DNA of 64,000 bases from an uncultured Candidatus Saccharibacteria bacterium. GTDB lineage: Bacteria > Patescibacteriota > Minisyncoccia > Phycocordibacterales > UBA9973. A program made the translations under genes and the position numbers. Shown in pieces: positions 1,356 through 40,155 of this stretch (positions are counted from its first letter, which is position 1; every line of letters begins with the position of its first letter). The notes below the pieces were generated by a model, which saw only the letters and a list, made by a program, of their open reading frames with translations, had not been told where the DNA came from and searched no databases. The stretch covers positions 80,172 through 144,171 of the forward strand of contig CAYZYV010000001.1 of NCBI GenBank assembly GCA_964482735.1, read 5' to 3'.

Positions 1356-3041
1356 TTACTTGTGGGATTTATGATTTTTTATACAAGCGTTTACAAAAGC
1401 ATTAAATAAAGGATGTGGCTCCAGAGGCCTTGCATTAAATTCTGGATGGAACTGAGTCCCTAGGAAAAATGGATGTTTATTTTTTGGTAATTCAGCTATC
1501 TCGCACAAAAGTCCATCTGGAGATTTGCCTGAAAAAACCATTCCTGCTTTTTCTAGTTTGTCTACATAAGCATTGTTAACTTCATAACGATGTCTGTGTC
1601 TTTCAGAAATTTCTTTTTTACCATAAGCTTTTTTGGCCACACTGCCATCTTTTAGAATTGCTTTATAAGCACCAAGTCTCATACTTCCACCCATTAATCT
1701 TTGTTTTATTTTTTCCTTTTGATCTTCCATCTCATCAACTATCAAATTTTTTGAATTTGGATTTATTTCCTTTGTGTTAGCATCCTTTAATCCGAGAACA
1801 TTTCTAGCATACTCTATCACCATTAGTTGCATTCCATAGCAAAGACCAAAATATGGTATCTTGTTCTTTCTAGCATATTCTATTGTCTTGATTATTCCTT
1901 CTATTCCACGAGAACCAAAACCTCCTGGAACTATTATTCCATCATATTGTTTTAGTTCCTTTAATTTTCTAGCGTCTTTTTCATATTCTGTTGATGATAT
2001 CCATGTTAAAGTTGGTTTTCGTCCATAGAAATATGAAGAATATTTGACTGCCTCTATAACACTCAAATACGAATCTGAAAAAGTAAAATCTCCCGTATTA
2101 AAATACTTACCAACGACGGCTATCTTTAATTCTTTTTTTAAATCATACGTGGATTTTGCAAATTTCTGCCAAGGAGTAACACCTCTGTTTTTACGATAAG
2201 GCAGACCTATAGTTTCGCTAATGATTTTACCTAAATTTTCTTTTTCATAATTGCGTGGAATGTTATAAATACTATCAACATCGGGAGATGAAATCACTCT
2301 GTCCTTAGAAATGTTACAGAACATTGAAATTTTCTCTTTTCGAGGGTCGTCTAGAGGCACTCGGCTTCTCGCTAGTATTATATCTGGTTGTATTCCCGAA
2401 GAATTAAGGGTACGGACGGCATATTGTGTTGGTTTTGTTTTCATCTCCCCAACCTTTGAAGGTATAGGTAAAAATGAAACCATCACAAAGAAGACATCTT
2501 TTGGATTTTTGATTTTCATCATTCTAGCAGCTTCCAAGAAAAGCATGTTTTGGTATTCTCCCACAGTTCCACCTATCTCTATCATTACGACGTTTGCGTT
2601 AGCTTTGTCTCTCGCTTCTTCAATACGACGAATAACTTCTAGCGGTATGTGAGGAACCACCTCTACACATTTTCCACCGTATTCCAGATTCCTTTCTCTT
2701 TTTATAACATTCTCATAAACCCTCCCCGTCGTCATGTAATTAATGTTTGGTAAGGTGGTGTTTAAAAATCTTTCATAATTACCCATATCTTGATCACACT
2801 CATATCCATCATCCAATACAAAAACTTCCCCGTGTTCTGTCGGATTCATCGTTCCCGCGTCTATATTTATATACGGATCTATTTTTATGGAAGTTACTCT
2901 GTGACCTTGATCAAGTAGTATTCTCCCTATAGAAGAAGAAGCCACCCCTTTACCTACACCTGAAATTACTCCACCGACGACAAAGATATACTTACAGTTA
3001 CTTTTCTTGTGTATATTTTTTGTCGATAGTGTGGTCTTCAT
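1356..3041 (-). CDS. pyrG: CTP synthase
   Basis: 561 aa. N-terminal synthetase P-loop GGVISGVGKG. C-terminal glutamine amidotransferase with GLCYGMQL and the HPEF motif. Confidence 0.9.
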   Translation of the reverse strand: MKTTLSTKNIHKKSNCKYIFVVGGVISGVGKGVASSSIGRILLDQGHRVTSIKIDPYINIDAGTMNPTEHGEVFVLDDGYECDQDMGNYERFLNTTLPNINYMTTGRVYENVIKRERNLEYGGKCVEVVPHIPLEVIRRIEEARDKANANVVMIEIGGTVGEYQNMLFLEAARMMKIKNPKDVFFVMVSFLPIPSKVGEMKTKPTQYAVRTLNSSGIQPDIILARSRVPLDDPRKEKISMFCNISKDRVISSPDVDSIYNIPRNYEKENLGKIISETIGLPYRKNRGVTPWQKFAKSTYDLKKELKIAVVGKYFNTGDFTFSDSYLSVIEAVKYSSYFYGRKPTLTWISSTEYEKDARKLKELKQYDGIIVPGGFGSRGIEGIIKTIEYARKNKIPYFGLCYGMQLMVIEYARNVLGLKDANTKEINPNSKNLIVDEMEDQKEKIKQRLMGGSMRLGAYKAILKDGSVAKKAYGKKEISERHRHRYEVNNAYVDKLEKAGMVFSGKSPDGLLCEIAELPKNKHPFFLGTQFHPEFNARPLEPHPLFNAFVNACIKNHKSHK

Positions 3042-3042
3042 G

Positions 3043-3993
3043 TTATCTCTTTAAGTATTTATGGACAGCAAAGAAACTAGATATTCCTCCTATGATAGTT
3101 CCAGAGCCGAGCATTATAATAAATAATTGTAAGAAGTTAGATTTATAGTAAGAAAATAGATTTATTCCTATAAATTCTGTCATTTGATTACCAAGCCATA
3201 TCGAAACAGGAATAAAGATTATCATCGTTGCCAATGAAGCGATAACTCCCACGATGATTCCAGACACGATAAATGGTCCGCGAATATAGTCACCTCCTGC
3301 ACCAACCAATTTCATAACACCTATTTCTTCTCGTGATATATAGATAATTAATTTAACAGTACTAAATGTTATCACCAAAGAAATAATGACTAGAATCAAA
3401 GATACAGCAAAGCCTAATTGCTTGGCTCCATTGATTATCGAAGTCAATCTATCTATAACCATTTTATTCTGACTATAATCTATTTTATCTATAATCATCA
3501 ATTCTCCTCGCGAGATTGTATTTTCACTTTCAAAATACTTAGAAATGCTTTCATATTGAGACGGATCTTTTGCTCTGACATTCAAAGATGCTCCTAGTGG
3601 ATTTTCACCTAATTCTTCGAGGGCTTGTAATGTTAAATAATCGTTAGCATGTTTCTCTTTAAAGTCCATTAATGCTTGGTCTTCAGAAACGTACTCAATA
3701 TCTTTAACTTCTGGTAATTTTTCGAGAGATTCTTTGATATTTAGGATAGATGTTTCAGAAGCATTAGGAACAAAATAAACAGTTACGTCTACCTTATCTT
3801 TTATTTCATTAAGGGAAGCATTAAGAGCTGCTTGTATAAAGACAAGAGAAGTAATAACAAACAAGGTGATTGTCATTATCAGAACGCTAGCAACAGAAGT
3901 AAAACCACTTCTTTTAAAGTTACGACATCCAGATATTACAACTCTTTTAAATTTAATAAAATTCATATTTTTATTATAGCATGTACTTGCCAT
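3043..3993 (-). CDS. ftsX: Cell-division ABC transporter permease FtsX
   Basis: N-terminal TM, periplasmic domain and three C-terminal TM helices. Overlaps the upstream ftsE by 20 nt. Confidence 0.75.
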   Translation of the reverse strand: MASTCYNKNMNFIKFKRVVISGCRNFKRSGFTSVASVLIMTITLFVITSLVFIQAALNASLNEIKDKVDVTVYFVPNASETSILNIKESLEKLPEVKDIEYVSEDQALMDFKEKHANDYLTLQALEELGENPLGASLNVRAKDPSQYESISKYFESENTISRGELMIIDKIDYSQNKMVIDRLTSIINGAKQLGFAVSLILVIISLVITFSTVKLIIYISREEIGVMKLVGAGGDYIRGPFIVSGIIVGVIASLATMIIFIPVSIWLGNQMTEFIGINLFSYYKSNFLQLFIIMLGSGTIIGGISSFFAVHKYLKR

Positions 3994-4699
3994 CTTTATC
4001 GTCTCTTACTATGCGACCATTTTCTAGTGTAATAACTCTCTTTTTAACTTGGTCTATGACTGTCCTATTGTGAGTTGTTAAAATGACAGTTGTCCCCAAT
4101 TCGTTAATTTTCTTTAATAAATTAACAACATCGTTTGTGTTTATTGGATCAAGATTCCCAGTTGGTTCGTCAGCAATAATTATATCTGGTTGAGTAATTA
4201 TTGCACGGGCTATAGCAAGTCTCTGTTTCTCACCACCAGACAACTGATGAGGGAAATTATTTTCTTTTCCATTTAAGCCTACCAATTCTAAGACTCTAGG
4301 GACATCTTCTTTTATCTCATCCTCATCTTTATCTACAGCCTCCATAGCAAAAGCAATGTTCTCATAGACGGTTTTGTTGGGTAAAAGACGAAAATCCTGA
4401 AAAACTGTTCCGATTTTTCTTCTTAATTTAGTTAATTCTTTACTTGTTAGCTTAGTAATATCTGTTGAGTCAAAAAAGATAGAGCCTTTGGAAGGATCTT
4501 CTTCTGCCAAAATCAATTTAGTTAATGTTGTCTTTCCTGCTCCCGAATGTCCAACGATAGAAACAAACTCCCCTTGAGAGATTGTAATATTAATGTCCTC
4601 AAGACAAACATTGTCCGAATATTTTTTTGTTACATTATTAAAATAAATCATTGTCTTTGTTATGATATCACAAATCCTTTTCCGCTTCAATAAAATCAT
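3974..4699 (-). CDS. ftsE: Cell-division ABC transporter ATP-binding protein FtsE
   Basis: Walker A GHSGAGKTTL, signature LSGGEKQRLAIARA, Walker B IIIADEPTGNLD. Likely true start is the internal MIYFNNV near 4651. Confidence 0.85.
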   Translation of the reverse strand: MILLKRKRICDIITKTMIYFNNVTKKYSDNVCLEDINITISQGEFVSIVGHSGAGKTTLTKLILAEEDPSKGSIFFDSTDITKLTSKELTKLRRKIGTVFQDFRLLPNKTVYENIAFAMEAVDKDEDEIKEDVPRVLELVGLNGKENNFPHQLSGGEKQRLAIARAIITQPDIIIADEPTGNLDPINTNDVVNLLKKINELGTTVILTTHNRTVIDQVKKRVITLENGRIVRDDKDGKYML

Positions 4700-5630: not shown

Positions 5631-5659
5631 TTAGTGATTTTTTTAAAAAATCTAAATTG

Positions 5660-5718
5660 AGCCCACGATCGGAATTGAACCGATGACCTCGCCCTTACCA
5701 TGGGTGTGCTCTACCAAC
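5660..5718 (-). pseudogene. tRNA-Thr(GGU)-like 3' two-thirds lacking a 5' acceptor/D arm (pseudo-tRNA)
   Basis: Nearly identical to 5782-5854 from the D-stem 3' strand through the acceptor 3' strand. That stretch is GGTAGAGCACACCCATGGTAAGGGCGAGGTCATCGGTTCAATTCCGATCGTGGGCT. The 5' part is replaced by the 40-bp repeat at 5719-5758. Confidence 0.5.
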
Positions 5719-5758
5719 TCCTGCCCGCAATGCTTAAAGCATAGCTTTTGCAGGCGGG
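5719..5758. repeat. 40-bp GC-rich repeat CCTGCCCGCAATGCYTAAAGCATAGCTTTTGCAGGCGGG (copy 1 of 3)
   Basis: Same sequence at 63161-63199, with a variant at 63123-63160. It contains the crossed complementary blocks CCTGC/GCAGG and CCGC/GCGG. Confidence 0.6.
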
Positions 5759-5781
5759 GAGCTACAAAACTTCATCCGCTG

Positions 5782-6651: not shown

Positions 6652-6725
6652 GCAGCCGTAGCTCAACTGGTTAGAGCACCCGCCTGTCACGCGGGAGGTT
6701 GAGGGTTCAAGTCCCTTCGACTGCG
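6652..6725 (+). tRNA. tRNA-Asp (anticodon GUC)
   Basis: GCAGCCG / TAGCTCAACTGGTTAGAGC / CCCGC-CTGTCAC-GCGGG / GAGGG-TTCAAGT-CCCTT / CGACTGC-G. Anticodon arm identical to E. coli tRNA-Asp. Confidence 0.85.
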
Positions 6726-6735
6726 CAAATAAAAA

Positions 6736-6765
6736 AAGAAGCCTAAATGGCTTCTTTTTTTCAGT
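6736..6765 (+). terminator. Rho-independent terminator after tRNA-Asp
   Basis: GAAGCC-TAAAT-GGCTTC followed by TTTTTTT. Confidence 0.55.
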
Positions 6766-7060
6766 CGAAGGGACTTGAAAGACGGAGCACGACGGTGCGA
6801 GGCGGGGTCGCGAGATTTTTCAGCAGAAAAATACTTGTGACCAAGTCCCTCGTTTTGTATTTTATTTATATATACTGGGTGATTTTGTTTTTTGCATAAG
6901 AAGGGACTTGAACCGGGGGCTTGCGAAGCCCGCGACAGCGGAAAGCCCGAGTGGAGGTCAATGAAGTGAGATATTTTATGAGTGATAACGAAATAAAATA
7001 TCCACGAGAGTGACCAAGTCCCCCATTTTGCCTGCGTAGGGACTTGAACAGCGGAGTCAT
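6766..7060. repeat. Non-coding block of tRNA-derived fragments and mini-elements (GGGACTTGAA motif five times, both orientations)
   Basis: Inverted copy of the tRNA-Asp 3' end (CAGTCGAAGGGACTTGAA) at 6762-6780. TIR-like GGGACTTGAA / TTCAAGTCCC pairs bracket cores at 6770-6848 and 6899-7020. Confidence 0.55.
6941..7012. repeat. ~62-bp hairpin element, copy A; copy B at 39911-39985
   Basis: GAGTGGRGGTC...GTGAGATATTTTATGAGTGRTAACGAAATAAAATATCCACGAGAGTGACC, about 90% identical between the two loci. Contains a perfect stem GATATTTTAT / ATAAAATATC. Confidence 0.6.
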
Positions 7061-7171
7061 ATTTTTCTAACAAGAAAAATAGACGAGTTAGTGACTAGAC
7101 AAAAATTTTTGACAAAAGTGTTTTTTGAGAATAAGCTATAATTAAAATAAACCTTTTAAAAACTTAATAAC

Positions 7172-27467: not shown

Positions 27468-27490
27468 TGTTGCGGAGACGCAGGGATTCG
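27468..27490 (-). repeat. 23-bp exact direct repeat of the tRNA-Ser 3' end (att-like remnant)
   Basis: GTTGCGGAGACGCAGGGATTCG is identical to 27666-27688. Shuffled fragments of the T arm also occur at 27588-27612. Confidence 0.6.
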
Positions 27491-27635
27491 GTCACGAGTT
27501 ACTAAATTTTTTATTTCGCTTTGCTCATAAAAAATAAAGTACTCTCGACCCCGACTCGGCAGTTTGAAAAGTTTTTCAAACTTTTCTCTGCCTGCGTCTT
27601 TCGAATCCCGCCCCGCACACATACGCCAAAAATCG

Positions 27636-27664
27636 ATACCTATGTAAACGGTATCGATTTTGGT
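27636..27664. terminator. Hairpin terminator downstream of tRNA-Ser
   Basis: AAATCGATACC-TATGTAAAC-GGTATCGATTT, an 11-bp stem with A/T runs on both sides. Confidence 0.45.
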
Positions 27665-27669
27665 CGTTG

Positions 27670-27756
27670 CGGAGACGCAGGGATTCGAACCCTGGAGCCT
27701 TTTTACGGGCTACCTCGTTAGCAGTGAGGCGCTTTCGACCACTCAGCCACGTCTCC
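27670..27756 (-). tRNA. tRNA-Ser (anticodon GCU)
   Basis: GGAGACG / TGGCTGAGTGGTCGAAAGCG / anticodon loop CTGCTAA / long variable arm GGTAGCCCGTAAAAAGGCTCC / AGGGTTCGAATCCCT / CGTCTCC-G. Confidence 0.85.
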
Positions 27757-27915
27757 AAAATTTTTCACTTTTACCGTTAAGACTTTCTACACATTATCAC
27801 AAAATTAATTATTTCTCAACGGGATAAATAAAAAACCTCCCATGACTTTTGTCGAGGAGGTTTTAAAAAAATATAACCCTATTTGGAATTCTTCTTTGCC
27901 ACTTTTTTAGGTGGC

Positions 27916-28038
27916 TTACTTTTTGGTTTTGGAGGCCACGGATTCTTTTGTCCGCTTTGTCACCCTTTTTGGTGACTTGCTTTTTGGAGACCGGGGGTTC
28001 TTTTGCCCGCCAGCGCTTCCAGTATTTGCTCCTGCCAT
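27916..28038 (-). CDS. Candidate 40-codon Lys/Ser/Pro-rich small ORF lying on a 2 x ~60-bp tandem repeat (uncertain: peptide or structured RNA)
   Basis: Hand translation gives MAGANTGSAGGQKNPRSPKSKSPKRVTKRTKESVASKTKK. Starts 12 nt after the radical-SAM stop on the same strand. The underlying DNA forms two repeat units, each with a 6-bp hairpin (GCCAC-TTTTTTA-GGTGGC and GTCAC-CCTTTTT-GGTGAC). Confidence 0.25.
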   Translation of the reverse strand: MAGANTGSAGGQKNPRSPKSKSPKRVTKRTKESVASKTKK

Positions 28039-28049
28039 TTTGTTATTTT

Positions 28050-29192
28050 TTAAAAATTAAACAAATTTGAGAAGAAAAGATATTCTCTTTTTAATTCTTC
28101 TTTACCATAAAGGCTAAACCATTTTTGAGCCCCGAGAGAGTACAATTCTCTAAAATTAGAATTAGCTTCTAATTCAGAGACGTTATGGCTTTCGTTTCCG
28201 AATAATTCTTCCAGTGTGTATTGCATACAATACGGCAACCTGTATGTCGCATCCGCGTCGATAAGAAAAGTCTCTGCTATACACATACTTATAGGAACAT
28301 ATTCGATTCTAATACCATCAATAAGGAAGCTGACACAACTAGAATCAACTAAGACCGTATCTTTTTTGATTTTATTATTTCTCGTAGTTAACATGAACTT
28401 TTTTAAATCTTCTAGTTTATAAAATCTTAGAAAGATTTTACCTTCTCCGGCAAAGGAGTAAATTTTCTTGTATTGATTCCAAAAGGCACTATAATCATCC
28501 AAGACAAAATCGGAATCCTTTGTAACAACTTCAGACGCAGGAGTTACATGTATTTCGTCAACAAGATTATTAGCCAACAAATAATTAGCTGTTTTCTCAA
28601 AATCACAAAAGTTAATTTTTGTGAGAGTAAACAAGCTAGTTACTTTTTTAGCGTAAGACCTCGCCTCTCTTAGCCCAACGACAGCCTCTTCAAAAGACTT
28701 GTTCGAATTTCTCTGAATGTTATGAACTTTTTCCATTCCATCTAAAGAGATGTCAATCCAATCAAATAAGAGACTGCTTTCTTTTAAAATCTTTCCTTGT
28801 TTAATATAAGAGCCATTATCCAATAATCCGATACAGATGTCTGGTCTTGTCTCTTTTATTTTTTTCATTACGGGAATATGCCATCCTTGTAAGATTCTCC
28901 CCTCGTGAACAACAAAAGAATTTTTTGGAAGCTGAGATACAATGTTTAAAATTTTTTGTTCTAAACAATTATTCTCAGATATAACACGAGAAGACTTTTC
29001 TCTTTGAAAAAAACAATGTTTGCAGTTAAGATTACAAGTCCTTTCCATTATCAGAGAACAGATTTTTGGATATTCTCTTTCTAGAGATTTTTCAAGGCCC
29101 CAAATGTTCTTGTGGAAAATATGACTTGAGGTCATTATTTGAAACCATTTATCTATTGTTCCCATATATCTAATTTTTAAATTTTTAAACAA
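28050..29192 (-). CDS. Radical SAM domain protein
   Basis: CNLNCKHC = CxxxCxxC cluster near the N-terminus. 380 aa. C-terminal region has scattered Cys but no canonical SPASM spacing. Confidence 0.7.
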   Translation of the reverse strand: MFKNLKIRYMGTIDKWFQIMTSSHIFHKNIWGLEKSLEREYPKICSLIMERTCNLNCKHCFFQREKSSRVISENNCLEQKILNIVSQLPKNSFVVHEGRILQGWHIPVMKKIKETRPDICIGLLDNGSYIKQGKILKESSLLFDWIDISLDGMEKVHNIQRNSNKSFEEAVVGLREARSYAKKVTSLFTLTKINFCDFEKTANYLLANNLVDEIHVTPASEVVTKDSDFVLDDYSAFWNQYKKIYSFAGEGKIFLRFYKLEDLKKFMLTTRNNKIKKDTVLVDSSCVSFLIDGIRIEYVPISMCIAETFLIDADATYRLPYCMQYTLEELFGNESHNVSELEANSNFRELYSLGAQKWFSLYGKEELKREYLFFSNLFNF

Positions 29193-29382
29193 CTTTTGAT
29201 TAAATTATAAATAAATATACTAATTGGTCAAATAAAGTCAGATAAAATAACAGATAAACGTTAATTTAATCATTGGTTTACAACGTGTTTTGTTAATATA
29301 CTATAGTGTTGTCAGTTTAGTTGACATTTTTAATTAATAGAATACAATATAATTATTAATCTTTTAGGAAAAATAAGAAAAA

Positions 29383-30120
29383 ATGAGCACAATTATTAAC
29401 ACCTTAATGGATCTTGGCCTTACAAACAAAGAAGCCAGTCTTTATTATGCCCTACTAAGGAAAGGAAGGTCTACTGTCCTAGAATTAGCCAAGGAATCTG
29501 GTCTTAAAAGGCCAACGGTTTATTTAACTTTGGATTCATTGAGAAATAAAGGTTTAATTTTAAAAATACCATACGCCAAGAAATCAGTTTATATAGCAAA
29601 GGAGCCGGACGAGTTTTTCAGAGATACTTACAACAAGATAAAGAGAGCTGGTGACAATCTGTCTCAAATAAAAGCCCTTTCTAAAAAGGAAGATAAGGTT
29701 TTTGTTAGATATTACGAAGGAGAGGGAGAGGTCAAAGAATCACTTTTCTACAGAATAGAAGAATTAAAAGGAACCGAAGACGTTGGTTTTTTTGCTAAAG
29801 CTGAAGAGATTAGTCCTTTTTTAATAAAATCATCACACCAATGGAGAGAAGAAAGTAAACACAGAAATATAAAAGTGAAAGGAATTGCTCCTTTTCACCC
29901 TACATTAGAAGAATTTAGAAAAACAGATAAAAATCTAGATCAAGTTTTTAAATCTATACCGATTAGTCTGTACTCTTCTAACTGTTCCATAGATGCCACT
30001 GATTTATTTGTAAGGATTGTTTTATTTAACGAAAATCAATCAGTTATTATAGAAAATAAAGAAATTGTAAAAACAATAAAACAAATTTTTAATATCTGTT
30101 GGGAAAGTATTAAAAATTAA
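29383..30120 (+). CDS. TrmB-family transcriptional regulator (sugar-specific HTH)
   Basis: N-terminal LGLTNKEASLYYALLRKGRSTVLELAKESGLKRPTVYLTLDSL, the TrmB wHTH pattern. Divergent from the radical-SAM gene. Confidence 0.55.
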   Translation: MSTIINTLMDLGLTNKEASLYYALLRKGRSTVLELAKESGLKRPTVYLTLDSLRNKGLILKIPYAKKSVYIAKEPDEFFRDTYNKIKRAGDNLSQIKALSKKEDKVFVRYYEGEGEVKESLFYRIEELKGTEDVGFFAKAEEISPFLIKSSHQWREESKHRNIKVKGIAPFHPTLEEFRKTDKNLDQVFKSIPISLYSSNCSIDATDLFVRIVLFNENQSVIIENKEIVKTIKQIFNICWESIKN

Positions 30121-30156
30121 TTATTTCTCAACGAGGTTTTTTGATATAATAATTCC

Positions 30157-30873
30157 ATGAGAATATCAGTTTTAATCATTGCGCATAATGAGGAAGAAAT
30201 AATTAAAAAATGTCTTTACTCTGCTATAAACCAAACCGTTAAACCAGATGAGATTATTTTAGTTGCCCATAATTGTACAGATAGGACGATTGAAATTGCT
30301 CAGGAGTTTAAAACAATAAAGATAATTCGATTTGATGGACCTCGAGGCACTGCTTACCCTAGAATAGAAGGATTGTCTCACGTATCGAATGAAAATGACA
30401 TAATTCTATGTATAGATGGTGATTGTGTAGCTAAAGAAAACTGGGTTGAAGAAATGTCGCACACTTTGAATCTCAACAACAACATTTTGGTTGGAAGTTA
30501 TATCAAATTTAAGGGCGATTTATTTTTATCAATTTCTAATATATTTAATAAAATAAAATGTAAAACTTCTGGAGAAAAAGCAGTTCGCTGGCTATGGGGA
30601 GGAAGTTTCGCCTTTTGGAATAAAGATAAGGATTTAGTAAAAAATATATTTGAAAAAACAATAGAATTATCAAGGGATTTACAACTTAGTAGAAATCCTG
30701 AAGACTTCTTACTTGCAAAGTTTTTAAAGAAAAAAGGAAACATAGAAATCACAAATAAAACTTTTGTGGTAGCTATGGCTAAAGAAAAATCTATTTTTGA
30801 ATCTTTCAAAAGGAATAGAGAGAATAACAAAAATGCTGAAAGGATAGAAAAATACTTTTTAACCTTAAAATAA
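30157..30873 (+). CDS. Family 2 glycosyltransferase
   Basis: VLIIAHNEEEII...DGDC: GT-A fold with DxD-like motif. Confidence 0.7.
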   Translation: MRISVLIIAHNEEEIIKKCLYSAINQTVKPDEIILVAHNCTDRTIEIAQEFKTIKIIRFDGPRGTAYPRIEGLSHVSNENDIILCIDGDCVAKENWVEEMSHTLNLNNNILVGSYIKFKGDLFLSISNIFNKIKCKTSGEKAVRWLWGGSFAFWNKDKDLVKNIFEKTIELSRDLQLSRNPEDFLLAKFLKKKGNIEITNKTFVVAMAKEKSIFESFKRNRENNKNAERIEKYFLTLK

Positions 30874-36049: not shown

Positions 36050-36115
36050 ATAAAAAATAAATCTATCTTTGGAAGATATATAAATAAACTTTTTAACCTA
36101 TTAAAATTACTTTTG

Positions 36116-36189
36116 TCCGTCCTCTAGGATTCGAACCTAGGACCCCAGAGGTATAAGCTCTGTGCTCTAACCAGCTGAGCTAAGGACGG
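36116..36189 (-). tRNA. tRNA-Ile (anticodon UAU)
   Basis: CCGTCCT / TAGCTCAGCTGGTTAGAGC / CAGAG-CTTATAC-CTCTG / CTAGG-TTCGAAT-CCTAG / AGGACGG-A. Anticodon TAT read directly from the loop. Confidence 0.75.
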
Positions 36190-36240
36190 AAGTCTGGTTT
36201 ATTATTTAAAACTAAACTATTACAACCATACACTTCCCGC

Positions 36241-36273
36241 CTAACCAAAACAGCTAAGGACGGAAGTCTGGTT
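36241..36273 (-). repeat. Degenerate duplicate of the tRNA-Ile 5' end plus 5' flank (decoy copy with a GTTTT D loop)
   Basis: CTAACCAAAACAGCTAAGGACGGAAGTCTGGTT at 36241-36273 versus CTAACCAGCTGAGCTAAGGACGGAAGTCTGGTT at 36169-36201. Same CAGC to GTTT substitution as in the tRNA-Met decoys. Confidence 0.6.
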
Positions 36274-36386
36274 AAAGACATATTAACCAAAAAAACAGTT
36301 ATTTGCAAATTTTACCGAACACAATTAAAGAAACAAGGCCTTGAACAGTTAATTATAAAAACCTTACTTTCGTAAGGTTTTTATAA

Positions 36387-39315: not shown

Positions 39316-39704
39316 GGGGATGATCGGCTTCGACAAGTGGAATCATCTTATATATGCATGTAAAGTACTCAGGAATCTTTTGAAACTTCCTGAAAAAGAC
39401 TAAGTGCAAACAAAGTCGCAAAGGTTGCATCACCCTATGCTTCGGCATTCGGTAATCCAGCTTTCGCTTTCGCCTAAACGGCCAGAGCGATGTCTGCTCT
39501 TTTGACACCCGATATAAAGAGTAGGCATCATTCATCGGGTTAAGGTTTTGCAGGTGCTTGTCGCAAAATCTGACAAGTTAAAGCTCGATATTTATCTTTT
39601 TTGTGTGTTCTCTAGGATAAATATTTAAAACCAATGAACACAATAAACATGTAGATTTATTTAGGAGTTTCATTTGCACGCGGGTTCGATTCCCGCCATC
39701 TCCA
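39316..39704 (+). ncRNA. ssrA: tmRNA (ssrA)
   Basis: 5' end GGGGATGATCGGCTTCGAC and 3' end GCGGGTTCGATTCCCGCCATCTCCA form a tRNA-Ala-like acceptor/T arm with the G3:U70 wobble. Resume codon GCA at 39406 opens the tag ORF ANKVAKVASPYASAFGNPAFAFA, with stop TAA at 39475-39477. Confidence 0.8.
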
Positions 39705-39711
39705 CACGTTG

Positions 39712-39748
39712 AAAAAAGAGTCCGTCGCAAGACGGCCTTTTTTCTTGT
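39712..39748 (+). terminator. Terminator after tmRNA
   Basis: CCGTC-GCAA-GACGG followed by CCTTTTTTC. Confidence 0.5.
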
Positions 39749-39751
39749 GTG

Positions 39752-40068
39752 GAGATGAGCGAGCAAACTGCTTTGCTCGCGTGCGGGAATCGAAAGGCTT
39801 TTCCGTACGAACGAAGTGAGGTGGAAAAGCACCCGCGACCGTAGGGCGAGATTCCCGTTTCAATGATGGCGGGAATCGAACCGAGCTCCGACAAAGTCCG
39901 CGAAGCGGCCGGAGCGAGTGGGGGTCGAGCGAGTGAGATATTTTATGAGTGGTAACGAAATAAAATATCCACGAGAGTGACCGATGAACCTATTCTGCTT
40001 TGCTCGCGTGCGGGAATCGAAAGGCTTTTCCGTACGAACGAAGTGAGGTGGAAAAGCACCCGCGACCG
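39752..40068. repeat. Repeat-dense non-coding block downstream of tmRNA
   Basis: Holds inverted copies of the tmRNA 3' end (39752-39762, 39873-39893) and a 9-bp hairpin GCGAGCAAA-CTGC-TTTGCTCGC. It also holds a 73-bp exact direct repeat at 39772-39842 and 39998-40068, plus hairpin element copy B (39911-39985). Confidence 0.65.
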
Positions 40069-40155
40069 TTTAATATTACATAATGGCTGGGATAGAGCTG
40101 GGGAGCTCAAATTGTGTCTATAGGGAGAGAATTAATTATTTAATTCTCTCTTTTT

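Follow-up and report, generated by a model that had tools for sequence, protein, structure and literature searches.

The hairpin analysed here is the distal part of one arm (P3) of a larger element, about 125-135 nt long, which we found only in Patescibacteria (CPR), where it follows tRNA and tmRNA genes in hundreds of genomes. Among the RNA families and mobile elements described so far, we could find none that matches it. We read it as a cargo-less, non-autonomous integrative cassette, which would insert into the T-loop, restore the 3' end of the tRNA and carry a structured module resembling the top half of a tRNA; we give this reading about an even chance.

The genomes of Patescibacteria are very small and leave scarcely any DNA to spare, but this GC-rich conserved fold trails many of the tRNA and tmRNA genes in them. 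Should it prove to be a mobile cassette, it has found a way to live in tRNA genes without an integrase of its own, and its arms, matched to each target tRNA, raise the testable question of how a 20-nt targeting arm is re-templated. If it is instead a functional RNA, a widespread CPR-specific copy of the acceptor/T-arm half of the neighbouring tRNA would point to unknown tRNA biology. Either way, the element accounts for many partial-tRNA matches and assembly breaks beside tRNA genes in CPR MAGs, and it can be used as a sequence marker of CPR contigs.

Copies of the hairpin in the window

An earlier note on this DNA singled out a hairpin of about 62 bp with two copies of about 90% identity in the window (the whole 64-kb stretch analysed). 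A 50-mer matched the window exactly twice, at 6966-7015 and 39933-39982 (both + strand), with 49/50 positions identical and the sole difference at the R position; none of 100 shuffles gave a match. Over the 68 nt covered by our covariance model (6948-7015 and 39915-39982), 62/68 positions are identical, so the figure of 90% was fair. The perfect 10-bp stem (GATATTTTAT/ATAAAATATC) is also present, at 6970-6979/6993-7002 and 39937-39946/39960-39969. Both copies do lie in non-coding DNA, downstream of tRNA-Asp and tmRNA and on the same strand, and the reported T-arm-like flanks are real (GGGACTTGAA and AAGTCCC at Asp, GCGGGAATCGAA at tmRNA). The outer GGTC...GACC pair exists (6956-6959/7012-7015), but the interval given for the feature, 6941-7012, starts 15 nt early and ends 3 nt short. 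The hairpin does not hold up as a unit: it is the tip of P3 and is missing from related units such as 6798-6842.

Behind tRNA-Ser there is a third copy, diverged in sequence (27490-27558, - strand), and a covariance-model search of the window recovered shorter relatives at 6798-6842, 7047-7096, 39778-39840 and 40005-40067, giving seven units in total. Three of the nine tRNA genes in the window carry the element.

Units at tRNA-Asp, tRNA-Ser and tmRNA

The gene for tRNA-Asp (GTC) lies at 6652-6726 (+; ARAGORN, Rfam tRNA 67.9 bits), and its 3' end is the source copied in the neighbouring units. Between it and the first unit is a palindrome of A-tract, GC hairpin and T-tract (6731-6761, +) with a 13-nt perfect inverted repeat (AAAAAAAGAAGCC/GGCTTCTTTTTTT); to judge from its sequence, it resembles a bidirectional terminator. 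Unit Asp-A (6762-6852, +; predicted fold -38.6 kcal/mol, z -4.5) begins with an antisense arm (6762-6779) that is the exact reverse complement of TTCAAGTCCCTTCGACTG in tRNA-Asp, an 18-nt inverted repeat with 100% identity. Its short core (6780-6842) has no counterpart of the flagged loop, terminates in GTGACC and is followed by the sense arm AAGTCCCTCG (6843-6852); the covariance model scores it at 25.7 bits (E=6.6e-4, 6798-6842). Unit Asp-B (6894-7022, +) carries the flagged hairpin at 6970-7002. Its predicted three-way-junction fold (-48.2 kcal/mol, z -5.6) consists of an antisense arm (6894-6914), P2 (~6915-6947), P3 (6956-7015) and the sense arm AAGTCCC (7016-7022), and its covariance-model score is 70.4 bits on the + strand vs 14.4 on the - strand. 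The third unit, Asp-C (7035-7096, +), is degenerate: an antisense arm (CGTAGGGACTTGAAC) leads through a short AT hairpin to GTGAC, with a 15-nt inverted repeat shared with tRNA-Asp and a weak covariance-model match (7047-7096, E=1.3).

On the minus strand, tRNA-Ser (GCT; 27669-27756; ARAGORN and Rfam) is followed by a complete cassette at 27469-27662, delimited by sequence and repeat search (predicted fold -57.6 kcal/mol, z -6.4; covariance model over 27490-27558, 88.8 bits on the - strand vs 18.4 on the +). Read along that strand, it comprises a terminator palindrome (~27662-27625), an antisense arm (27617-27600), a core ending in GTGACC (27599-27490) and a sense arm (27489-27469) in which the tRNA-Ser 3' end is copied exactly over 21 nt (GAATCCCTGCGTCTCCGCAAC).

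Downstream of tmRNA (ssrA; 39316-39707, +; ARAGORN, Rfam 139.6 bits) stand three units. A terminator and unit tm-A occupy 39710-39857 (+; repeats and a weak covariance-model match), the terminator at 39722-39735 being called on both strands. The antisense arm of tm-A is split into TGTGGAGATG (39748-39757) and GCGGGAATCGAA (39783-39794) by an inserted hairpin (39760-39779); the core extends to GCGACCGT at 39842, and the sense arm GATTCCCG lies at 39850-39857. Unit tm-B (39865-39985, +; 75.3 bits) is the second flagged copy, with an antisense arm (39865-39882) that is an 18-nt exact reverse complement of tmRNA GGTTCGATTCCCGCCATC, a core (39883-39982) containing the hairpin (39937-39969), and a sense arm reduced to GAT. 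The third unit, tm-A' (39995-40069, +), is 75 nt long and 100% identical to 39768-39842.

Distribution and genomic neighbourhood

Pattern and covariance-model searches found more than 240 copies of the family, almost all in Patescibacteria. The motif occurs in 84 genome stretches, almost all labelled Patescibacteria, Paceibacteria, Parcubacteria or Saccharibacteria, and in at least 120 metagenome stretches; the covariance model gives 121 matches in the 84 genome loci. A tRNA or tmRNA gene lies on the same strand within 600 nt upstream for 60 of the 88 motif matches in genome loci and, among the metagenome matches listed, for 91 of 124, a further 18 being too near the edge of their locus. The median distance from tRNA to motif is 134 nt, and among the matches listed the hosts comprise 18 tRNA types as well as tmRNA. 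Placement is the same behind tRNA genes for covariance-model matches outside the search pattern, and it is unchanged in loci picked via a protein rather than the motif. Viral contigs contained no match to either of two patterns, and with both scans empty we rejected a phage or plasmid origin.

Searched with Rfam 15, the whole window gave tRNA and tmRNA matches only, and region 6730-7120, searched at E up to 10, gave only chance-level matches (best 27 bits against a threshold of 51). We found no description of the element in the literature. No recombinase, transposase or reverse transcriptase is linked to it: among the 204 loci listed, no recombinase family is enriched within 2.5-3 kb and no transposase-bearing parent element lies within 3 kb, and none of these enzymes was recognised by eye among the proteins encoded in the window.

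A single neighbour family stands out: its protein (~226 aa) combines an HTH domain with a C-terminal domain that weakly resembles LAGLIDADG. The gene proved to be one that lies upstream of tRNA-Gly, tRNA-Met or tRNA-Arg, no more than ~40 nt away and in many cases in conserved synteny, so it gives no evidence of a linked enzyme.

Architecture and junctions

The element always stands behind a tRNA or tmRNA gene on its own strand, with a terminator (A-tract, hairpin, T-tract) between them; then come the antisense arm, P2, P3 and the sense arm. The element proper is a three-way junction of ~125-135 nt (~190 nt with the terminator hairpin), in which P2 is a variable hairpin and P3 a long irregular hairpin with tandem G-A loops that ends in an invariant GTGACC. 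The closing helix is locus-specific: at each locus, an antisense and a sense copy of the local tRNA 3' end pair to form it. The antisense arm reproduces the neighbouring tRNA in reverse complement, from position 54 as far as the 3' end; it matches a 12-nt T-arm complement with at most two mismatches in 37/48 genome loci and 46/69 of the metagenome matches listed. Directly after GTGACC, the sense arm copies the tRNA from position 57; its first 7 nt agree with at most one mismatch in 31/48 genome loci and in 39 of the 69 metagenome matches listed. Even an unusual T-loop in Met is mirrored in the antisense arm (TGC as GCA). The antisense arm complements the 3' strand of the tRNA and does not copy the 5' strand, as seen from AAGGG and CAGTCG at Asp and from GGAGATG at tmRNA.

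Arm lengths vary considerably. The sense arm runs to 18-39 nt in 14 of 40 loci, and the direct repeat that it forms with the tRNA ranges from 6 to more than 36 nt. Many sense arms are just 6-8 nt long with a sharp border, beside an antisense arm that is perfect over ~20 nt, and the converse also occurs. Copies with a full sense arm, such as L020 and the Ser copy of the window, have the equivalent of an acceptor/T-stem helix in sequence and predicted fold; many others retain only 6-10 bp of closing helix, and in some loci it consists of only the last 3 nt of the tRNA plus the terminator tracts. The likeness to tRNA goes further in five loci, where a hairpin of 24-26 nt interrupts the antisense arm at the precise point where acceptor stem and T-stem meet. 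The predicted fold of one of these units runs from an acceptor-like stem through a side arm and a T-like stem to the core (-79.5 kcal/mol, z -7.7). By sequence reading, tm-A has the same kind of boundary hairpin.

Retroviral primer-binding sites use the tRNA 3' end into the T-loop, and by analogy the antisense arm, which spans this same part of the tRNA, suggests a retroelement-like or target-templated element. Its arms would be rewritten from the tRNA used and its product would enter the tRNA gene by homology, the proposal being that the antisense arm serves the tRNA 3' end as primer-binding site or guide, or that a polymerase recognises the tRNA-like end as a tag. Exactly copied arms with sharp borders, beside cores that are 93-100% identical, are consistent with such templating, as is the fact that the antisense arm ends at position 54 and the sense arm begins only at 57, a 3-nt offset that resembles a defined break or stop point. 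However, no reverse transcriptase is linked among the 204 loci listed, and the antisense arm contains no CCA complement in CCA-less genes. In most loci (L014, L025 and L034 among them) it is the genomic trailer and terminator that are copied instead of CCA, which points to a DNA source, and we consider such an element quite improbable.

Another origin would leave the element without function. The tRNA 3' segment occurs in the order sense/antisense/sense and its junctions lie at two hairpins, an arrangement typical of tandem inversion duplications; such a triplication would arise if the replicating strand snapped back and switched template at the hairpins of the T-arm and the terminator. At more than 240 loci, however, antisense and sense copies enclose a 100-nt core that is conserved and shows compensatory changes, which a by-product of this kind does not explain, and it seems to us scarcely credible.

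Fold, covariation and strand

Three units in the window have fold z-scores of -3.4 to -6.4. In an alignment of which several invariant columns are imposed by the search pattern, 95% of P3 cells are paired, vs 41-53% with the partner column slid, and double changes fill 49 cells vs 19.5 in shuffles. The middle pair of a 3-bp helix at the base of P2 occurs as A-T (11), C-G (7), G-C (2), T-A (2) and T-G (1). These compensatory changes are not independent events, because they come largely from a few subfamilies. The earlier note had called for a motif search and a covariation analysis, and its proposal survives the objections it raised against itself (only two copies, no compensatory changes), because copies far exceed two and the changes exist.

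The fold also has a strand. In 42/42 elements the sense strand folds more stably than its reverse complement (by a mean of 9.3 kcal/mol), the sense-strand folds of these 42 contain 103 G-U pairs, and the covariance model scores 70-89 bits on the sense strand vs 10-18 on the antisense. An RNA from the opposite strand, which would be the form that folds and scores worse, was rejected on these grounds; a promoter-like site for the opposite strand at Ser is within chance expectation. The suggestion in the earlier note of a small structured RNA thus agrees with the conserved fold, the compensatory changes and the strand asymmetry, and its status as an RNA is predicted; covariation and strand bias would be equally expected from folded sense-strand DNA.

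These same features raise the possibility that the element serves its host and is not selfish: a non-coding RNA that would mimic a tRNA's top half, be fixed at tRNA loci and be kept uniform by gene conversion. RNase P, RNase Z or the CCA-adding enzyme would process it out of transcripts that read through the tRNA gene, and it would act on tRNA metabolism, perhaps as a decoy that diverts nucleases or proteins that bind tRNA, or by pairing in antisense with the tRNA 3' end. The tandem G-A internal loops, G-U pairs and strong sense-strand bias are RNA-like, the closing helix mimics acceptor and T stems, and the side hairpin stands where the D and anticodon arms exit a real tRNA. Even beside a short sense arm, the antisense arm still matches the functional tRNA copy perfectly, and no mobility gene is linked among the 204 loci listed. 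On the other hand, a general tRNA mimic need not match the neighbouring tRNA, and only a subset of tRNA genes (three of nine in the window) carry the element. Together with the insertion signature described below, this leaves a host RNA unlikely in our view, though well worth keeping in mind.

Insertion signature and strain variation

The direct repeat can run through the terminator (~36-38 nt at L014, 30-39 nt at L025, >24 nt at L034). Inner and outer terminators bear no relation to each other at L030, L036 and L038, which is what a cassette importing its own would leave. A displaced terminator often follows the sense arm, an insertion footprint that argues against a host RNA, as do tandem and degenerate copies; arrays of units occur at Asp in the window (A-B-C), at L046 and at L060. 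Presence also varies between strains: tm-B is missing in strain variants L095-L097, whose flanks are 98-99% identical and whose surroundings also differ. Every strain variant recovered has the Asp and Ser units. Related genomes carry the element at orthologous loci (for Asp, the window and L034; for Ser, the window, L060 and L045), a persistence that would suit a host RNA. Among the strain variants, exact-protein look-ups for three flanking genes gave no clean empty site.

Cores are much closer within a genome than between genomes. Between different tRNAs of one genome, core identity is 100% (Asp/Leu), 96% (Arg/Phe) and 93% (Met/Tyr), vs a mean of 69% between genomes.

Integrases that target tRNA genes classically leave a footprint, namely a direct repeat in which the tRNA 3' end is copied from the T-loop onwards. 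The element could accordingly be regarded as the scar of an integrase-borne island or prophage, its tRNA 3'-end repeats being attL/attR remnants and its core a leftover of an island end. The direct repeat matches this footprint, and the same strains have other, gene-bearing inserts at the same sites that are bounded by the same tRNA 3'-end repeat, which we count toward the insertion signature as well. However, the gene-bearing inserts at tmRNA and Asp have ends without the core, att scars have no equivalent of the antisense arm, and a single structured core with covariation stands behind 18 tRNA types. No integrase fragments were found near the 204 loci listed and the motif is absent from the viral contigs scanned, so that scars of this kind appear very improbable.

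How a cassette could work

In our preferred reading, a cassette would insert between positions 56 and 57, within the T-loop of a tRNA or tmRNA gene, and supply a replacement 3' end and terminator; because it brings both, the tRNA would remain functional. The old 3' end, often with the old terminator, would be displaced to the far side and survive as the sense arm. The core and the two arms would fold as one strand with the polarity of the tRNA; the simplest candidate is an RNA that the tRNA promoter yields by read-through, with the closing helix re-creating the acceptor/T-stem stack of the neighbouring tRNA. We infer that this fold is a functional module recognised by a factor encoded elsewhere. 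The near-identity of copies in one genome may be kept by repeated insertion or by gene conversion limited to the core; core-only conversion could yield such identity without current mobility.

Several observations sit awkwardly with this. A cassette specific to one tRNA cannot simply hop to another, and short, sharp sense arms beside perfect antisense arms of ~20 nt are not what simple decay of a displaced tRNA end predicts. It also seems odd, if units accrete one by one, to find the order A-B-A' at tmRNA with an identical repeat of 75 nt. Further points against the cassette are that no recombinase, transposase or reverse transcriptase is linked among the 204 loci listed, that the strain variants yielded the Asp and Ser units throughout and no clean empty site, and that the closing helix of some loci comes from just 3 nt of the tRNA and terminator tracts. 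Perhaps the element is instead a homing element without a protein gene, its core mimicking the top half of a tRNA and its arms rewritten from the target (antisense from 54, sense from 57). If the arms are copied anew from the target on entry into the T-loop, a single core lineage could colonise any tRNA; the antisense arm may just as well be a guide that selects the tRNA gene. Such homing would amount to a new class of programmable tRNA-directed mobile element peculiar to Patescibacteria, and we rate it as rather unlikely.

Comparison with known systems

Islands and prophages that use tyrosine integrases to target tRNA and tmRNA genes are among the closest matches to a cassette. They share the site behind the gene, the repeat starting in the T-loop, the intact tRNA and the possibility of arrays, and the Ser copy of the window is flanked by just such a repeat, exact over 21 nt. 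Unlike them, the cassette is a ~190-nt non-coding unit with neither an integrase gene nor cargo inside; it has an antisense copy and a structured, covarying core, and one core type serves many tRNAs.

The earlier note had also considered a MITE-like passenger homing to tRNA-like sequence. The multi-copy nature of the element and its tie to tRNA and tmRNA 3' ends agree with this, but it is not an ordinary MITE. Like MITEs, REP/REPIN with RAYT, Correia and Rickettsia palindromic elements, it is small, non-coding, multi-copy and hairpin-forming, with near-identical copies per genome and no enzyme of its own. In contrast to these repeats, its termini are locus-specific tRNA copies and its placement and orientation are strictly tied to tRNA 3' ends; the arms vary per locus, there are no common terminal inverted repeats and no short fixed target duplication, and no related autonomous transposase element was found within 3 kb.

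Folded recombination sites (integron attC, and the attP of CTX phage used with XerCD) are likewise bulged hairpins of ~60-140 nt, strand-specific, arranged in tandem arrays and placed at a fixed site. Here, however, RYYYAAC/GTTRRRY core sites are absent, no integron integrase is near and the stem is derived from the target. An integron gene cassette was rejected, the ends being ..TCGAA(CC) and GTGACC followed directly by GAAT, with T-loop GTTCGAA, and no integrase found nearby.

The tRNA-like structures of tmRNA, viral 3' ends, YrlA and mascRNA resemble the element in their acceptor and T-stem helix, in adjoining tRNA genes and, for some copies, in a side arm at the 7/49 junction. They differ in that the T-loop (elbow) is here replaced by P2 and P3, and that many copies keep just the T-stem part. 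Self-cleaving ribozymes (hammerhead, twister, pistol, hatchet, HDV-like) are absent from region 6730-7120 at Rfam E up to 10; reading UAUGAG...CGAAA as a hammerhead fails in addition on the missing C3 and G5 of the core. By inspection, the bulge geometry of the G-A loops is unsuitable for a kink-turn or box C/D motif. A leader or riboswitch was rejected since downstream genes vary and lie on either strand, and the TIGR-Tas arrays of the literature, with 36-nt units and a Nop-domain protein, are unrelated.

Guide-bearing elements (group II introns with EBS/IBS, including IIC; IS110 bridge RNA; IS605 omega RNA) are also structured RNAs with target-matching segments, and may insert beside a terminator hairpin (IIC introns do so after terminators). 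In contrast to them, the present element has no adjacent DEDD recombinase, TnpB or IscB, and its two matching segments pair together to close the fold, where guides lie in open loops. We rejected bridge RNA and IS605-IS607 omega RNA, no recombinase or TnpB/IscB gene adjoining in the window or at the 204 loci listed. A TnpB/IscB guide RNA with either arm as guide was rejected because such a nuclease would cut the intact tRNA copy and no nuclease gene is adjacent. A group II intron needs a six-domain ribozyme of at least ~600 nt with domain V, and the unit, at 125-135 nt, has no overlapping Rfam intron match. At locus L042 a group I intron match lies upstream of the element, probably in the tRNA.

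The hairpin belongs to a tRNA-matched unit

From the sequence alone, an earlier note had flagged a hairpin of about 62 bp beside tRNA-Asp (given as 6941-7012), with a second copy beside the tmRNA gene. The observation holds, its coordinates being slightly loose: the 50-mer quoted there occurs exactly twice in the window (6966-7015 and 39933-39982, both on the forward strand), the sole difference between the copies being an ambiguous position, and had no match in 100 shuffles. The identity, put at about 90%, comes to 62 of the 68 nt bounded by our covariance model, and the 10-bp stem with its outer GGTC/GACC pair is present as described. On the same strand, tRNA-Asp (6652-6726, forward) and the tmRNA (39316-39705, forward) lie upstream of the two copies, 222 and 210 nt away when measured to the model match, or 240 and 228 nt to the start of the 50-mer. 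The ORFs called over the Asp region are spurious calls overlapping the tRNA. The tag peptide that ARAGORN predicts for the tmRNA (ANKVAKVASPYASAFGNPAFAFA) is unusually long and terminates in AFAFA.

Each copy is part of a larger unit (the element, or cassette), consisting of an antisense arm, a core and a sense arm. After tRNA-Asp there is a perfect palindrome of A-tract, hairpin and T-tract. The antisense arm (CAGTCGAAGGGACTTGAA) is an 18-nt exact reverse complement of the tRNA-Asp T-loop, T-stem and acceptor 3' strand, and is followed by a GC-rich core running to GTGACC and then the sense arm, which repeats the tRNA directly from its T-loop on (AAGTCCCTCG). Three such units are consecutive on the forward strand (6762-6852, 6894-7022 and 7035-7096), the second holding the flagged hairpin. 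The tmRNA locus is organised likewise, its arms matching the tmRNA, with GCGGGAATCGAA occurring three times and an 18-nt exact complement at 39865-39882; its units run in the order A, B, A', B being the hairpin-bearing type. A k-mer screen over all nine tRNA-like genes of the window revealed a third locus on the minus strand, behind tRNA-Ser. A terminator and an antisense arm precede a diverged core that shares the loop (TTTTATGAG...CGAAATAAAA) and GTGACC, and the next 21 nt repeat the tRNA-Ser 3' end exactly. The antisense arm is truly complementary to the tRNA 3' strand and is not a 5'-strand copy, as the positions of G-U pairs or mismatches in the tRNA show: here the arm has the Watson-Crick partner (at Asp, AAGGG instead of GAGGG and CAGTCG instead of CAGCCG; at tmRNA, GGAGATG instead of GGGGATG).

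A second recurrent motif, ACGAACGA(A)GTGAGG, occurs within a hairpin loop in the shorter tmRNA-type units (39795-39842 and 40022-40069) and in tRNA-flanking arrays from other genomes (L010 at ~2700-2740, L019 and L064), and may mark a sister family.

Distribution in Patescibacteria

A gapped pattern of the features common to the three window copies, scanned against one genome per species, matched 84 genome stretches, well beyond the two copies that the earlier note had proposed to extend by a wider search. Nearly all were labelled Patescibacteria, Paceibacteria, Parcubacteria, Saccharibacteria, Kaiser-, Lloyd-, Yonath- or Nomurabacteria; the rest, few in number, come from short, plausibly mis-binned contigs in MAGs of other phyla. 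The pattern also matched at least 120 metagenome stretches, while viral contigs had no match with it or with a second pattern. A covariance model built on the P3 region of the core (see below) scored the three B copies of the window at 70-89 bits, with the shorter units lower, and found 121 copies in the 84 genome loci. About 33 of its matches fall outside the search pattern, and they too are placed after tRNA genes, or follow a first copy in arrays. Loci fetched with an unrelated protein query also had the element behind tRNA-Gly and tRNA-Pro.

Of 88 matches at genome loci, 60 have a tRNA or tmRNA on the same strand within 600 nt upstream, typically at 105-160 nt. The metagenome loci are an independent replicate of this placement: among the matches listed, 91 of 124 have an upstream tRNA or tmRNA (median distance 134 nt), and 18 more are too near the locus edge to judge. 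At least 18 tRNA types plus tmRNA are represented, and some apparently tRNA-less matches actually have an intron-containing or damaged tRNA upstream. At L042, a group I intron (2941-3140) lies immediately upstream of an element copy, presumably within an intron-containing tRNA. LOOT RNA (RF03000) occurs away from the element at four loci (L029 1534-1651, L044 4402-4539, L061 5440-5564 and L072 6460-6575).

Rfam has no family for the element, at gathering thresholds or permissive E-values, and TIGR-Tas was ruled out, its published array being 36-nt and unrelated. The flagged hairpin is real, and is the visible tip of a feature that is widespread at Patescibacteria tRNA loci and described nowhere in the literature we searched.

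Fold and junctions

Each B unit is predicted to fold as a three-way junction: P1, a closing helix formed by the two arms; P2, a hairpin whose variable sequence is unrelated between copies; and P3, a long irregular hairpin with the flagged stem-loop at its tip. Fold energies range from -41 to -58 kcal/mol (z-scores -3.4 to -6.4 against shuffles), and the reverse complements fold more poorly. Across 42 of 42 distinct elements, the tRNA-sense strand is the stabler (by 9.3 kcal/mol on average), and the covariance model scores sense copies 50-70 bits above antisense. In the P3 alignment, where several invariant columns are forced by the search pattern, 95% of cells are paired, against 41-53% with partners slid by 1-3 columns. 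Compensatory changes, which the earlier note had proposed as a check, were found, with 49 double-change cells in P3 against 19.5 in shuffles; they are mostly contributed by a few subfamilies. Of 35 sequences, 29 have G-U and five A-U as the closing pair of P3, and in the 3-bp helix at the P2 base the middle pair is seen as all four Watson-Crick types plus wobble. These signals would be expected equally from folded sense-strand DNA and from RNA.

The junctions with the tRNA are exact. At most loci the sense arm starts at tRNA position 57, immediately 3' of GTGACC, and over its first seven bases it differs from the local tRNA by no more than one base in 31/48 and 39/69 tested loci. The last base of the antisense arm is the complement of position 54 (52 in one subfamily), and the arm agrees with the local T-arm (12-nt complement, up to two mismatches) in 37/48 and 46/69, tracking even the unusual Met T-loop (TGC to GCA). 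Its acceptor end has a conserved one-base bulge. Often the antisense arm is perfect over 20 nt and the sense arm only 6-8 nt long; the reverse also occurs, and at some loci the closing helix consists only of the last three tRNA bases and the terminator tracts. At five loci and, by reading, in the first tmRNA unit of the window, a 24-26-nt hairpin with linkers AG and CGT sits within the antisense arm, exactly between the acceptor and T-stem complements; in a real tRNA, the D and anticodon arms branch off at this place. One such unit has a predicted fold of acceptor-like stem, side arm, T-like stem and core (-79.5 kcal/mol, z -7.7).

Signs of insertion and turnover

At three loci (L014, L025, L034) the direct repeat extends beyond the tRNA end, into or through the terminator, and at three others (L030, L036, L038) the terminator beside the tRNA is unrelated to that after the sense arm. 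The latter would follow from a cassette that carries in a new 3' end and its own terminator, displacing the old ones. In one subfamily the terminator is conserved among cassettes at different tRNAs (L007, L010, L039, L046, L054). The most economical reading, to which we give an even chance, is that the element is a cargo-less, non-autonomous integrative cassette for the tRNA/tmRNA T-loop, with a structured module resembling a tRNA top half on the tRNA strand.

Within a genome, cores at different tRNAs are 100% (Asp/Leu), 96% (Arg/Phe) or 93% (Met/Tyr) identical, compared with a mean of 69% between genomes, and this identity stops sharply at both arms. The main rival, which we consider improbable, is a host-serving tRNA-mimic RNA, fixed at tRNA loci and homogenised by gene conversion; the two readings are not mutually exclusive. 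Neither explains how both arms come to match each tRNA, and the central oddity is that exact antisense (from 54) and sense (from 57) copies surround cores that are near-identical across loci. Possibly the arms are re-templated at each insertion, or conversion tracts are confined to the core. With a low but real probability the target-matched arms reflect a new mechanism; we rate site-specific non-autonomous elements and tRNA-like RNAs as the nearest known kinds. At L018 (~4100-4330, minus strand), a tRNA 5' half runs from its anticodon loop straight into the final 15 nt of a B-type core and the tRNA 3' end, with a complete cassette after the fused tRNA; this looks like a deletion between the tRNA and the first cassette copy.

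Strain variants of the tmRNA locus, retrieved by exact SmpB match, show other inserts. L095-L097 are without the B unit; directly after the tmRNA they have instead an insert of ~880 bp (L095 3852-4732), delimited by a direct repeat of the tmRNA 3' end that begins in the T-loop. This insert has no integrase gene, and its opposite strand codes for a NYN-domain protein of 188 aa. Window positions 39858-40144 are exchanged for another 570 bp, which contain a 123-aa ORF of unknown family. The Asp-locus variants L090 and L092 (1-770) have a different insert, which contains a 171-aa ORF lacking a Pfam match and is flanked on one side by a copy of the tRNA-Asp 3' end plus its terminator and on the other by the PhoH/PIN gene. 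The tRNA 3' flanks of this organism are hot spots for several unrelated small inserts. The Ser unit is kept in all strain variants recovered. Upstream of tRNA-Ser, ~2.9 kb of the window with three genes (27852-30759; 380, 245 and 238 aa) is missing from the otherwise near-identical variants L105-L107, in which a DksA-like gene lies ~370 nt from tRNA-Ser (L105: 709 to ~1080).

Candidate enzymes

Across 84 and then 204 loci (metagenome loci among the matches listed), the neighbourhood of the element is not enriched in any recombinase, transposase or reverse transcriptase family. The window itself has ordinary CPR functions, including type IV pilus genes, ribosomal proteins, SmpB and a PhoH/PIN protein. 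The only neighbour family standing out is a ~226-aa Patescibacteria protein with 531 database relatives, found at L007 (2086-2763), L046 (1259-1939), L008, L023, L025, L040, L115-L121, L122, L163, L177, L179, L183, L196 and L212. Its N-terminal domain is HTH_23; the C-terminal domain, in which a G-D motif is conserved, is weakly homing-endonuclease-like (Foldseek probability 0.77; structure model mean pLDDT 84). The gene is always on the element's strand, and in 12 of 13 cases ends at most ~40 nt upstream of a same-strand tRNA-Gly(GCC), tRNA-Met or tRNA-Arg; the Gly-linked group is highly conserved and syntenic. A paralogue is inserted in the tRNA-Arg leader of L007, and the orthologous leader in the related L046 is without it. 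We regard the protein as a candidate tRNA-directed nuclease, not established as a partner of the cassette.

Other irregularities at tRNA genes

Between two called tRNA-Thr genes is a third tRNA-Thr(GGT)-like sequence (5631-5780, minus strand), called by neither ARAGORN nor Rfam, with a GC-rich hairpin of ~39 nt (cccgcctgcaaaagctatgctttaagcattgcgggcagg) in its D-arm region; possible readings are a tRNA that is interrupted, decaying or carrying an insertion. The leader and first ~20 nt of tRNA-Ile (36115-36189) are duplicated ~70 nt upstream of the gene (~36240-36290, minus strand; ccagacttccgtccttagct, then gttttggttaggcgggaagtg). In the strain variants, a duplicate of the first 18 nt of tRNA-Ser, a CTGC-loop hairpin and a GC-rich stretch precede that gene (L105 ~970-1080). 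Together, the tRNA-Ile and tRNA-Ser duplicates indicate that the 5' (D-loop) side of tRNA genes receives insertions as well.
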